A stretch of 64,000 bases of DNA, from sequence record MT446386.1; one strand, given 5' to 3'. The DNA is from Escherichia virus TH06. Each line of letters begins with the position of its first letter. Within the stretch, counting starts at the first letter, position 1. The notes below the pieces were generated by a model. It was given only the letters and a program-made list of their open reading frames with translations. It did no database searches and was not told where the DNA came from. Shown piece after piece: positions 44,044 through 63,272 of the stretch. The translations under genes and the position numbers were made by a program.

Positions 44044-44209
44044 TTTAATAAAAGGCTGCCTAGAAATAGGTGGCCTTTGTTGTTTTAATTAAGGGTCAAC
44101 TCTTACTTAAACTAACAACGGGTGTATGGTATTGACAGGCATCGGCACGGAACTTGTTACCAACAAGGTTGGCGAATCAAGACCTCTGTGAAGCTCCGAA
44201 GAAATCAAG

Positions 44210-44237
44210 GCAGGTTCGACTCCTGCTCCCCGACCAA
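44210..44237 (+). other. tRNA-like T-arm plus acceptor-3'-like segment (not a complete tRNA)
   Basis: GCAGG-TTCGACT-CCTGC followed by TCCCCGACCAAATC; no matching 5' acceptor strand found. Confidence 0.2.
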
Positions 44238-44256
44238 ATCAGCAAGAGGTGCTTAT

Positions 44257-45207: not shown

Positions 45208-45283
45208 GCGCTCTTAGCTCAATGGATAGAGCAGTAGCCTTCTAAGCTATTGGTTACAGGTTCGAGTCCTGTAGGGCGCACCA
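45208..45283 (+). tRNA. tRNA-Arg (anticodon TCT)
   Basis: Hand-folded cloverleaf: acceptor GCGCTCT/AGGGCGC with one G-U, D-arm GCTC/GAGC, anticodon stem GTAGC/GCTAT, loop CTTCTAA, T-arm ACAGG-TTCGAGT-CCTGT, encoded CCA. Confidence 0.7.
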
Positions 45284-45377
45284 CATTTAGGGCTAGTATG
45301 GGTGCGGCACCAGAGTTAGTGTATCCCTGTTGAGGCAAGTGCTTTTATAACAGTGGGAATTACTTTCTTAGTGAGCT

Positions 45378-45404
45378 TCTGGTTCGATTCCAGATAGTCC
45401 ACCA
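45378..45404 (+). other. second tRNA-like T-arm plus 3' segment (no canonical cloverleaf)
   Basis: TCTGG-TTCGATT-CCAGA followed by TAGTCCACCAAATC; shares the ACCAAATC tail with 44210..44237. Confidence 0.2.
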
Positions 45405-45423
45405 AATCTAATAGGAGGTAATT

Positions 45424-61358: not shown

Positions 61359-61909
61359 AGAAAAAGAAGAAAGTGTTTGCATTCGATATCGAGAGTAATG
61401 CACTGTACGATGACATAACTAAAGTATGGTGTATTTACATCTTCAATGTTGAAACTGGTGAAAGGTGGGGCTATCGGCCTCACCAAATTGAAGACGGGAT
61501 TCGTAAACTTACAGAAGCTGATGTGCTCGTTGGTCATAACATTATTGACTTCGACTTACCTGCTCTGAAGAAGATGTATCCTTCTTTGATTAAATATCAT
61601 TTTAACGTCTTTGACACTCTATGTCTTAGTCGATATCTTAAACCTGACCGTATTGGTGACAGTCCTGAGTATCCGAAAGGCGACCCTAGACATGGCCCAA
61701 GAGGTCATGGCTTGAAGCAGTGGGGTGAGTTCTTAGAGGAACTTAAAGGAGATTACGGTGAGCAAGAGGAAGCATGGGATGCTTTCACTGAAGATATGTT
61801 TACTTATTGTGAACAGGACGTTAACTTAACCGTTAAGGTTTATAAATACTTGTGTGAACTCACAGGATTCGACCCTTACGACCCACCTTCATTATATTGG
61901 AAAATGTAA
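61352..61909 (+). CDS. DnaQ-like 3'-5' exonuclease (stand-alone)
   Basis: Exo I FDIES, Exo II HNIIDFD, Exo III YCEQD. Confidence 0.6.
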
Positions 61910-61910
61910 A

Positions 61911-63272
61911 ATGATTGTTATCCCGATTAACCAAATTGAAGATAAGGTTTCTCAACAACCTGATATCACTGTTGGTCGTCACTTCATTGAGCAATTGATT
62001 AATAACAACTTAATTCCAGACGGTATCTGTCCCATCATTACTGGTGGGGCTGTTCGAGATGCTGTGCTTAATAACACAGCTCCACATGACATTGATATCT
62101 TTATTGTCAGAGGACAAACACCAAGAACTCAAAACACATTCATCCCAACTGACCGTTGGCAAGCTCTTGGAAGAGAGATTGAAAGTAATGTGAAGGAATG
62201 GCTAGAGTCACAAGATATCGAGTATGCATCCCTTCTTGCTGAAGCTACGAACGAATCCTATGCTGGGGGTTCTCAATTAACATTCACTGATATTATTGAG
62301 TTTCAGTGGAATGGGGTTCGTATCCAATTCATGTTTAATTATCCTACTTCTATTGAAGAGGTATTGGATAATTTTCCTATGATGTGTCGTGGTGCGATGA
62401 CTCTTGACAATTTATTCATGACTTCTCATGGGTATTTGGCTATGACCGCCCCCTGTCCAGTGGTTGTTTCTAGTCGTGAAATCAGATACGTTCACAAGAA
62501 GTGGCCTAACTCGCAAGTATTGAGATTTTCCTCTCCAGCAGTTGCACATCAATACATGGCCCAAACTCGATATCTTCCCACACCCCAGCCGGTTAGTCAT
62601 CTGGTTAATGGATTAGGTCAGGTTTCTCTTATTGAGGATACAACAAGTGCTCAATATTGTGTTAACCGAGACATGAGTCGATTCTTTGGAATCCCTTATG
62701 AAGAGATTCAGTTAATGTCAAGCATTCATGGCTCTAGCCAGATTCGTGCATATTGGTCTGAAGGGTTGACAAACTTAACAACTAATACAGGAGGAGATCT
62801 CCTTGGTCGAGAAGATGAACCTAATCGGCACAATGCAATTGAAGGGGTGTTTGTAGCCCCTGCAATGCGCCGAGCACAAGAGTCACGAAGAGTAAGCCCT
62901 ACTCGTAGAACATCTTTTGAAGAAGCTCTTGGTATTACAAGTGATTCTATGGAGAGATGGATGGCTAGTCCTTCTCGTGGTCGTCCAAATGGTTTAACTG
63001 TTAGCGCACGTCAGTTCTCTGGTCAGGGTTTTGCTGTTGGTGATATCAACGCACCTGTTAGGGCTGTGTGGACTGATGAAGGTGTGGCCCAAGATGTGGC
63101 AGGTAGTCTTGATGTTCCTTCTCATGAGGAACTTGCTGAGACCATCAGTCGAAATCTCGCTGACCGCTTTGTTGCTAACAACCCTGAAGTATTAGAACCT
63201 CAAACCCGCACAGTTCGGTTTGCCGATGAAGCGGGTCGTGGAATCTCTTTTGACATGGAAACAAACAACTAA
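61911..63272 (+). CDS. Pol-beta-superfamily nucleotidyltransferase with a CCA-adding-enzyme-like head motif
   Basis: ITGGAVRDAVL...HDIDIF resembles the GG(A/S)VRD ... D.D motif of class II tRNA nucleotidyltransferases; start chosen at the ATG after the exonuclease stop. Confidence 0.4.
   Translation: MIVIPINQIEDKVSQQPDITVGRHFIEQLINNNLIPDGICPIITGGAVRDAVLNNTAPHDIDIFIVRGQTPRTQNTFIPTDRWQALGREIESNVKEWLESQDIEYASLLAEATNESYAGGSQLTFTDIIEFQWNGVRIQFMFNYPTSIEEVLDNFPMMCRGAMTLDNLFMTSHGYLAMTAPCPVVVSSREIRYVHKKWPNSQVLRFSSPAVAHQYMAQTRYLPTPQPVSHLVNGLGQVSLIEDTTSAQYCVNRDMSRFFGIPYEEIQLMSSIHGSSQIRAYWSEGLTNLTTNTGGDLLGREDEPNRHNAIEGVFVAPAMRRAQESRRVSPTRRTSFEEALGITSDSMERWMASPSRGRPNGLTVSARQFSGQGFAVGDINAPVRAVWTDEGVAQDVAGSLDVPSHEELAETISRNLADRFVANNPEVLEPQTRTVRFADEAGRGISFDMETNN

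Follow-up and report, generated by a model that had tools for sequence, protein, structure and literature searches.

The window analysed here is the whole of a 64,000-nucleotide (nt) stretch of Escherichia virus TH06 (sequence record MT446386.1), in which the region described below is 88-95% identical to phiEco32-like coliphages (Kuravirus and its sister genera in Gordonclarkvirinae). On the coding strand of an early-gene block of small open reading frames (ORFs) lie a genuine transfer RNA (tRNA) gene, tRNA-Arg(TCT), at 45208-45283 (called by ARAGORN; Rfam 72.4 bits), and two elements, el1 and el2, each marked by a perfect T-arm hairpin; all window features given here by coordinate are on the plus strand. 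The el1 hairpin, GCAGG-TTCGACT-CCTGC (44210-44226), is followed by TCCCCGA (44227-44233) and CCAAATC (44234-44240), and the el2 hairpin, TCTGG-TTCGATT-CCAGA (45378-45394), by TAGTCCA (45395-45401) and CCAAATC (45402-45408). The original prediction, made from the letters of the stretch, had correctly described both hairpins, the 7 nt and CCAAATC that follow each, and the ~95 nt separating the second T arm from tRNA-Arg; its start coordinates are exact, whereas the ends it gave, 44237 and 45404, fall inside tails that reach 44240 and 45408. The motif GGTTCRANTCC occurs at three sites in the 64-kb window, namely el1, el2 and the genuine tRNA-Arg, against 0.32 expected in a shuffled window, and none of 100 shuffles contained three. 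A composite of T loop, 7 nt and ACCAAATC was found twice against 0.01 expected per window, while the 8-mer ACCAAATC alone is unremarkable (3 found, 2.6 expected). Among relatives, conservation at this end is confined to ...ACCA, and the bases that follow differ (CCAAATC, CCAAATT, CCAATTA, CCACTTT).

Run on the window, ARAGORN and Rfam made tRNA-Arg(TCT) at 45208-45283 their sole call and left el1 and el2 uncalled. Taken in isolation, neither element matched RF00005 even at E <= 10, the best tRNA-clan match being tRNA-Sec, with 15.2 bits where the gathering score is 47, and Rfam searches at gathering and permissive thresholds returned no known RNA family besides tRNA-Arg. The proposal that the hairpins do not belong to canonical tRNAs is upheld by these searches, including the ARAGORN check that had been suggested with it, which found no complete second tRNA in the region. 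The further proposal that they are isolated 3' halves, lacking a matching 5' acceptor strand, gives way to a different picture: the strands CGGGUG and GGGCUA exist 82-85 nt upstream, and the hairpins are the 3' ends of complete units of ~117 nt. The two units are laid out alike, each with an initial A, a 6-bp acceptor stem with its 5' strand at positions 2-7, a 17-nt D-like region at positions 8-24, a long hairpin, a linker, a canonical T arm (5-bp stem, UUCRANY loop) and a final A + CCA.

The el1 unit spans 44118-44236 (119 nt from A1 to the encoded CCA) and forms a block shared with phages 7-11 and SeKF_80 and with the kuravirus pEC-N1203-2Af.1, between flanks that are unrelated or differ. 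Its 5' acceptor strand CGGGUG (44119-44124) pairs with UCCCCG (44227-44232) in five of six positions; the 3' strand, UCCCCG + A + CCA, extends over 44227-44236. In folds computed with the acceptor and T arm fixed, the 17-nt D-like region (44125-44141) is weakly defined, with two modelled pairs only, and has U8, A9 and A14 at tRNA positions. It is followed by a long irregular hairpin of 58 nt (44142-44199, unit positions 25-82) with the apex CCAAC-AAG-GUUGG, for which alifold and constrained folds were identical across the four variants, and by a 10-nt linker, equivalent to a variable region, at 44200-44209. The T arm GCAGG-UUCGACU-CCUGC (44210-44226) carries a compensatory C-G to U-A change in 7-11 and SeKF_80, in which both columns of one stem pair have changed.

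The el2 unit spans 45289-45404 (116 nt, again from A1 to the encoded CCA), beginning 5-6 nt after the end of tRNA-Arg. All six positions of its 5' acceptor strand GGGCUA (45290-45295) pair with UAGUCC (45395-45400), with G·U at the third pair, and the 3' strand UAGUCC + A + CCA occupies 45395-45404. Its 17-nt D-like arm (45296-45312; UGG / GUGCGGCA / CCA, with an 8-nt loop) has GG and A at tRNA positions 18, 19 and 21, and a natural G16-to-A variant falls in the loop. The long irregular hairpin (45313-45369, 57 nt, unit positions 25-81; apex GAGGC-AAGU-GCUUU), an 8-nt linker (45370-45377) and the T arm UCUGG-UUCGAUU-CCAGA (45378-45394) complete the unit.

As had been noted, an anticodon arm (5-bp stem, 7-nt loop) is absent from both units; because an irregular 57/58-nt hairpin, capped by a 3- or 4-nt loop, stands in its place, el1 and el2 cannot decode. 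An alternative el1 stem-loop (5 bp, 5-nt loop) was rejected, being broken by the natural AAG-to-GUA variant, as was the single 7-nt-loop stem that inspection offered in el2, on account of its U·U mismatch and its non-canonical loop. The spacing from T stem to CCA is 7 nt in both elements against 8 in tRNAs, so that the stack of acceptor and T stems is one pair short. Minimum free energy folds pair the 5' and 3' strands in both units, and the fold stability of el2 (z = -2.27) is near that of tRNA-Arg (z = -2.04). Since joint alignment by MAFFT misplaces the 5' strands, separate models were built from el2 (R1) and el1 (R2). Run with filters off on 1.7 kb, R2 retrieves el2 with the exact boundaries 45289-45404 (E = 0.027), and R1 aligns the acceptor, D arm, T arm and ACCA onto the real tRNA-Arg, matching the D-like arm of el2 to the tRNA-Arg D arm and treating the long arm as an insertion; cross-detection between the two models is weak.

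Comparison with relatives delimits the same units independently. A presence/absence block of 127 bp (44118-44244) contains el1 and is absent from Bas90 and WFI101126, whose empty site reads aaactaaca/agaggtgc; its flanks form an imperfect direct repeat, AAACTAACA / AAATCAGCA in the window and AAACTAACA / AAATTAACA in pEC-N1203-2Af.1. An imperfect direct repeat, CCACAT/CCAAAT, likewise flanks the el2 cassette, and the corresponding empty site in WFI101126 and pEC-N1203-2Af.1 is tRNA-CCA-(C/A)AT-CAAATAGGAGG. In all comparisons the shared blocks begin at the A before CGGGTG (el1) or GGGCTA (el2) and finish at ACCA(+AAT). The assignment of the 5' acceptor strands is credible because both sit exactly at these independently defined left cassette edges.

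The two cassettes differ in distribution. In blastn searches against phages, el1 was found in four Escherichia records only, and at 93-94% identity in the Salmonella phages 7-11 and SeKF_80 (Moazamivirus, another family), with unrelated flanks; copies of el2, 97.5-100% identical, came from 29 Escherichia/Shigella phage records. The neighbours of el2 are one of three tRNA-Arg alleles and one of two downstream genes, and its identity stays high even where the adjoining allele or downstream gene differs: 97-100%, the level of the functional tRNA-Arg itself, against 75-90% for flanking coding sequences (CDSs). Both elements are missing from most relatives, and all four natural combinations occur: el1 and el2 together (the window, EC.W2-6), el2 without el1 (Bas90, SU10), el1 without el2 (pEC-N1203-2Af.1) and neither (WFI101126). 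No copy of either was found in 5,426 E. coli genomes. These patterns are best read as those of accessory cassettes in an early-gene tRNA hotspot, whose gain, loss and exchange apparently involve whole units coextensive with the predicted RNAs.

Variation within the units follows the modelled structures. The variants compared comprise nine closely related sequences (four of el1, five of el2) with 12 variable columns, and no modelled pair is broken in any of the 12. Besides the compensatory T-stem pair, four changes leave a pair intact (two of C to U opposite G in el1; G·U to A-U and A-U to G·U in el2) and six fall in loops, including all three apical-loop bases of el1 (AAG to GUA). The long-arm variants of el2 are the two pairing-preserving changes and one in the apical loop. 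The covariation is only supportive, because the sample is small and its members too closely related.

Taken together, these observations suggest that el1 and el2 are probably complete, non-canonical tRNA-like small RNA genes, with tRNA-derived bodies and an expanded arm, a prediction from sequence in which we place somewhat better than even confidence. Several points weigh against it. The fold of el1 is no stabler than that of shuffled sequence (z = -0.07), its acceptor stem carries a U·C mismatch, and chance alone would supply a 6-nt complement, G·U pairs included, in about one of three ~150-nt stretches. The acceptor register can be read in two ways, either as 6 bp + A73 + CCA or as seven positions with an A1·A72 mismatch and no discriminator. 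MAFFT and models R1 and R2 detected no homology between the long arms of el1 and el2. In shuffle controls the structure-compatible variation was not significant for el1 (85/500) and was uninformative for el2, and the high identity among copies could reflect recent horizontal spread instead of purifying selection. Finally, el1 lies just past a strong intrinsic-terminator-like hairpin and T-run (44051-44078, 39 nt upstream; an annotated terminator in WFI101126), and a scan between the terminator and the next gene found no promoter, so that el1 and the genes downstream depend on read-through or on an unrecognised promoter.

The original prediction had also raised the idea that the hairpins are tRNA remnants, which in its fuller form would make el1 and el2 functionless, decaying pseudogenes or recombination scars of tRNA-Pro-like and tRNA-Gln/Ala-like genes disrupted by insertion. 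Their 3' ends do resemble real tRNAs with 1-nt deletions, both elements are dispensable and missing from most relatives, the el1 fold is not unusually stable, and the hotspot is prone to rearrangement and contains true remnants. We nevertheless consider this account rather unlikely. El2 is conserved like the functional tRNA-Arg (97-100%) between flanks at 75-90%, the changes in el1 preserve structure, and across both elements no substitution breaks a helix while one is compensatory; el1 has crossed phage families intact; and two elements unrelated in sequence share the same unusual dimensions and end geometry. Truncation, faster divergence and helix-breaking change, the marks of a pseudogene, are all absent, and both ends are intact at the cassette edges.

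Genuine tRNA debris at the hotspot, seen in TH42 and phage 7-11, contrasts with this intactness. In TH42 (L011 60-190; a record marked UNVERIFIED), where ARAGORN calls no tRNA, a D-armless tRNA-Arg(TCT)-like gene (GGGGGTT-TATCTCA-CCCGT-CTTCTAA-ACGGG...GCAGGTTCGAGTCCTGT-AACCCCC) with a long extra region is followed by the truncated 3' half of a YF01-type tRNA and then by el2. In phage 7-11 (L004 ~2663-2673), the 11-nt fragment CTGTAGGGCGC corresponds to the T-stem/acceptor 3' strand of tRNA-Arg and lies ~45 nt past el1; the site has no predicted tRNA and suggests one that has decayed next to an intact el1. The tRNA-Arg(TCT) locus itself exists as three distinct alleles, those of the window (45208-45283), of YF01 (L010 114-189) and of pEC-N1203-2Af.1 (T4-like, GTCCC...; L007 3013-3087), and the tRNA-Arg at the kuravirus locus seems to have been replaced and not to have diverged in place.

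If el1 and el2 are RNA genes, we infer that they are expressed, processed at defined sites into stable products, possibly charged, and have a biological role. Both would be co-transcribed with the early polycistronic RNA and excised in the manner of the adjacent tRNA-Arg. Directed by the stem and by the ACCA motif opposite, RNase P would make its cuts 5' of C44119 and of G45290, where single strand meets helix; RNase E with 3' exonucleases would trim after the encoded CCA, leaving stable non-decoding RNAs of ~115-118 nt and a downstream mRNA that keeps a leader of 19-21 nt. The products might then act as acceptor-arm mimics bearing a specific long arm, el2 being alanylated, or binding or decoying enzymes that read the tRNA acceptor end.

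The spacing to the next genes also admits a role in cis, in which the elements are processing signals of the t-element kind, tRNA 'punctuation' that cuts the early transcript and defines or stabilises the start of the mRNA downstream, with the excised RNA as a by-product. From the end of each element to the following start codon (ATG 44257 after el1, ATG 45424 after el2) is 19-21 nt, the element lying just upstream of the Shine-Dalgarno sequence; el1 sits between a terminator and the next gene; and the concept is established for t-elements (PMC1920247). The same genes are nevertheless expressed in relatives without the elements, with the same Shine-Dalgarno sequence and spacing; the gap between el1 and the gene that follows is 77 nt in phage 7-11; and an acceptor/T-arm minihelix would suffice for such a signal, yet the 57/58-nt arm is kept, even across phage families. 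We therefore regard cis-acting processing as unlikely, though not negligible, as the reason for which the elements exist. Processing-signal mimicry and service as a nucleotidyltransferase substrate, both raised in the original prediction, are possible roles.

In relatives without el1, the same terminator lies ~45 nt from the next start codon. A promoter within el1 was considered and dropped: TTGACA is present, an acceptable -10 is lacking, and the scan was empty. Loose matches to the phiEco32 gp36 motif tAATGTATAtA (PMC4281155), TTAGTGTATC in el2 and GGGTGTATGG in el1, were judged to be chance.

Protein coding offers another account of el1, as an N-terminal extension or a small upstream ORF starting at GTG 44122, in frame with the 117-aa ORF downstream. 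The frame is open across el1 in all four variants, three of seven codon changes are synonymous, and annotation pipelines have called CDSs here in pEC-N1203-2Af.1 (L007 1508-1651) and SeKF_80 (L008 263-424). Against this, an open frame of 39 codons is expected by chance in ~40% of such sequences, the GTG has no Shine-Dalgarno sequence, relatives without el1 retain the real start, ATG 44257 with AAGAGGTG, the downstream partner varies by genome, and el2 has no plus-strand ORF; a coding role for el1 is barely credible. The 'hypothetical protein' CDSs over el1 in pEC-N1203-2Af.1 and SeKF_80 look spurious, given their GTG start, lack of a Shine-Dalgarno sequence and differing 3' continuation.

How the cassettes move bears on a further alternative, that their role lies in the DNA, the T-arm-encoding motif and repeat-like ends making them homing-endonuclease targets or short-homology recombination modules whose RNA structure is incidental. 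Imperfect direct repeats flank both cassettes, an HNH gene abuts tRNA-Arg in YF01 and lies in the same region in other kuraviruses, and the site of the T4 endonuclease SegB holds a conserved tRNA T-arm-encoding motif (PMC2330249). Such a role would cover mobility but would leave unexplained the conservation of the 5' strand, the presence of a long arm, and substitutions such as C to U opposite G, which are strand-specific and compatible with wobble pairing, and most element-bearing genomes show no endonuclease gene adjoining an element; we judge it quite improbable. As a means of movement for tRNA-like RNA genes, in contrast to a function, endonuclease-stimulated or short-homology recombination is plausible because of the repeats, the nearby HNH genes and the SegB target. 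In some kuraviruses an HNH endonuclease gene reaches or overlaps the start of tRNA-Arg (for example YF01, L010 1-123), and, on the SegB analogy, may be what shuffles the tRNA and tRNA-like cassettes. An attP-like integration core was rejected, the phages being lytic and the host without a match.

The acceptor ends of the two units make different biochemical predictions. Read from G45290, the presumed RNase P site, el2 presents G1-C72, G2-C71, G3·U70, A73 and CCA, invariant in its five variants. Compared with E. coli tRNA-Ala (GGGGCUA/UAGCUCC-A-CCA), it differs only by G1 to A and the loss of C69, the 5' end AGGGCUA resembling GGGGCUA. Alanyl-tRNA synthetase (AlaRS) takes its identity elements, G3·U70 and A73, from the acceptor helix, independently of the anticodon. 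Because AlaRS reads these features in the acceptor helix only, alanylation of el2 is predicted, and el2 may be charged by this enzyme. The T arm and 3' strand of el2 are in addition 93.5% identical to a tRNA-Gln of Klebsiella Jiaodavirus phages. The el1 acceptor has no G·U at the third pair; its end is tRNA-Pro-like (C-G first pair, A73), its 5' end ACGGGUGUA resembling that of a Vibrio phage tRNA-Pro (CGGGGUGUA) and its 3' end the CUCCCCG-A-CCA of the same kind of tRNA minus one base. Prolyl-tRNA synthetase requires the anticodon too, and for this reason charging of el1 is not predicted.

CCA is already encoded in both elements despite the presence in the window of a CCA-adding-like ORF (61854-63272, 472 aa), which shows a weak match to the Poly A polymerase (PolyA_pol) head domain (E = 7.5e-4, below the Pfam cutoff). 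Its counterpart in SU10, gp74, has been described as a 'class II CCA-adding enzyme nucleotidyltransferase domain' protein (PMC4281155). Also downstream of the tRNA hotspot is a cluster of phiEco32-type COOH-NH2 ligase, amidoligase and glutamine amidotransferase genes (51938-56581).

Descriptions of the kuravirus group list a single tRNA (PMC9965538, PMC4281155), and our literature searches found el1 and el2 described nowhere. In the kuravirus and Moazamivirus records inspected, their loci carry no RNA feature and are either blank or, for el1, covered by a hypothetical CDS. A group credited with one tRNA would therefore also hold, as predicted here, two structured tRNA-like RNA genes of a sort that annotation pipelines overlook or overlay with spurious ORFs. 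The odd shared geometry (one pair short, an ACCA end, no anticodon), together with the AlaRS-type acceptor of el2, yields concrete biochemical predictions, and the role of the elements is directly testable because natural near-isogenic variants exist, some of them in public collections (BASEL). The weight of the finding would rise should the RNAs prove to be charged or to counter host defences directed at tRNA ends.

Similar genes may be more widespread. A pattern scan of phage and metagenome contigs, which forced the 3' geometry (T arm, 7 nt, CCA), returned other non-decoding tRNA-like genes, several in contigs with 14-37 tRNA genes, with bodies of ~50-132 nt. L142 (2352-2483, minus strand, 132 nt) has an el2-like 5' end, GGGCUA-AUAUGG, and L063 (1614-1722, plus strand, 109 nt) el1-like ends, CGGGGA/UCCCCG-A-CCA. 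Forms of ~50-70 nt were seen in L001 (3564-3612, plus), L057 (2565-2631, plus), L134 (7791-7862, minus), L135 (~500-564, plus), L136, L137 and L139 (4012-4081, minus), of which L134 and L135 differ by compensatory hairpin changes (UGACAC/GUGUCA against UGAAAC/GUUUCA). These finds suggest that anticodon-less tRNA-like genes in phage arrays form a broader, heterogeneous class; because the scan design forced the 3' geometry, they are a lead and not a test.

Applied to 100 IMG/VR loci, models R1 and R2 found no full-length relatives, the matches being tRNAs and short tRNA-like genes whose alignments omit the long arm. In IMG/VR, a spacing of 7 nt ahead of CCA was abandoned as a mark of family membership, since ordinary tRNAs that have U1-A72, and C73 before CAA, mimic it, and for the same reason that scan is no evidence for a short-acceptor class. 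A human gut contig of 1.9x coverage (L138, 42-115, minus strand) carries a predicted tRNA-Ala(CGC) that shares the 3' end UAGUCCACCA and has the 5' strand (U)GGCCUA, whose acceptor is one base short, as in el1 and el2, with C·U at the third pair; given the low coverage, this geometry may be an assembly error.

One might go further and suppose that el1, el2, the T4 stable RNA known as RNAC and the array genes belong to one widespread, unrecognised class of anticodon-less phage tRNA-like RNAs, with el2 alanylated by the host AlaRS through G3·U70 and A73, and that these serve in non-ribosomal aminoacyl transfer or as decoys or sponges for toxins that act on acceptor ends, an extension that we offer tentatively and regard as doubtful. 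Toxins acting on tRNA acceptor ends include the CCA-end pyrophosphorylating toxSAS/CapRel enzymes, nucleotidyltransferases of the MenT/AbiE type and acceptor-stem nucleases. If the supposition were true, the RNAs would show an authentic acceptor, T arm and ACCA end to cellular enzymes while being kept out of decoding, and the phage CCA-adding-like enzyme could share in the same counter-defence.

Among known systems, el1 and el2 share with canonical phage tRNAs and E. coli tRNA-Ala the T arm, acceptor pairing and an encoded CCA followed by AAU, and with phage tRNAs also the tight packing before the next gene and cassette behaviour at the same locus. By contrast, they have no anticodon arm, have 7 and not 8 nt between T stem and CCA, and go undetected by ARAGORN and RF00005. 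Plant mitochondrial t-elements, mascRNA and the TMERs of MHV68 likewise mimic an acceptor and T arm within longer transcripts, near mRNA ends, and presumably recruit RNase P and 3' processing; these are eukaryotic or organellar, whereas el1 and el2 have an encoded CCA and a large conserved arm and are dispensable, mobile units. The el2 acceptor, with G3·U70, A73 and a ...UCCACCA 3' end, recalls transfer-messenger RNA (tmRNA) as it does tRNA-Ala, but el1 and el2 lack a tag reading frame and pseudoknots and are a third of tmRNA size; ARAGORN made no tmRNA call, and Rfam tmRNA_permuted scored 7.5 bits against a gathering score of 47. In the engineered tRNA scaffold, a foreign hairpin similarly takes the place of the anticodon arm in a tRNA-like body.

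The nearest parallel comes from phage T4, whose species 1 and 2 are long-known phage tRNA-like stable RNAs. There the gene order is tRNA-Arg(UCU), rnaD (119 nt), rnaC (139 nt), and the role of RNAC, the species 1 RNA, is still described as unknown (PMC3014915, PMC9697503). No homology extends beyond the T arm: R1 matches the T4 region at E = 0.12 over the T-arm part only, and in blastn searches of el1 and el2 against phages, T4-like matches occurred only at tRNA 3' ends. The ends of RNAC are also closed by seven terminal pairs, two of them U·U mismatches, which no encoded CCA follows; it has two arms (~70 and 26 nt) in place of one of 57 nt and, in common with its partner, is reported to be a late RNA, while el1 and el2 lie in the early region. 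Yet RNAC comes from a stable-RNA gene in a phage tRNA cluster, as el2 is predicted to do, and, like el2, lies on the same strand as tRNA-Arg(UCU) and directly downstream of it. In the window, el1 occupies the same early tRNA hotspot as el2, 1 kb upstream. The canonical T arm of RNAC, CCGGG-UUCGAAU-CCCGG, leads into a 7-nt strand, CGUUUCG, that pairs with a 5' CGAUUCG, and its body is expanded, with no anticodon loop. By architecture and location, and not by sequence, T4 RNAC thus appears to be the closest known analogue of el1 and el2.

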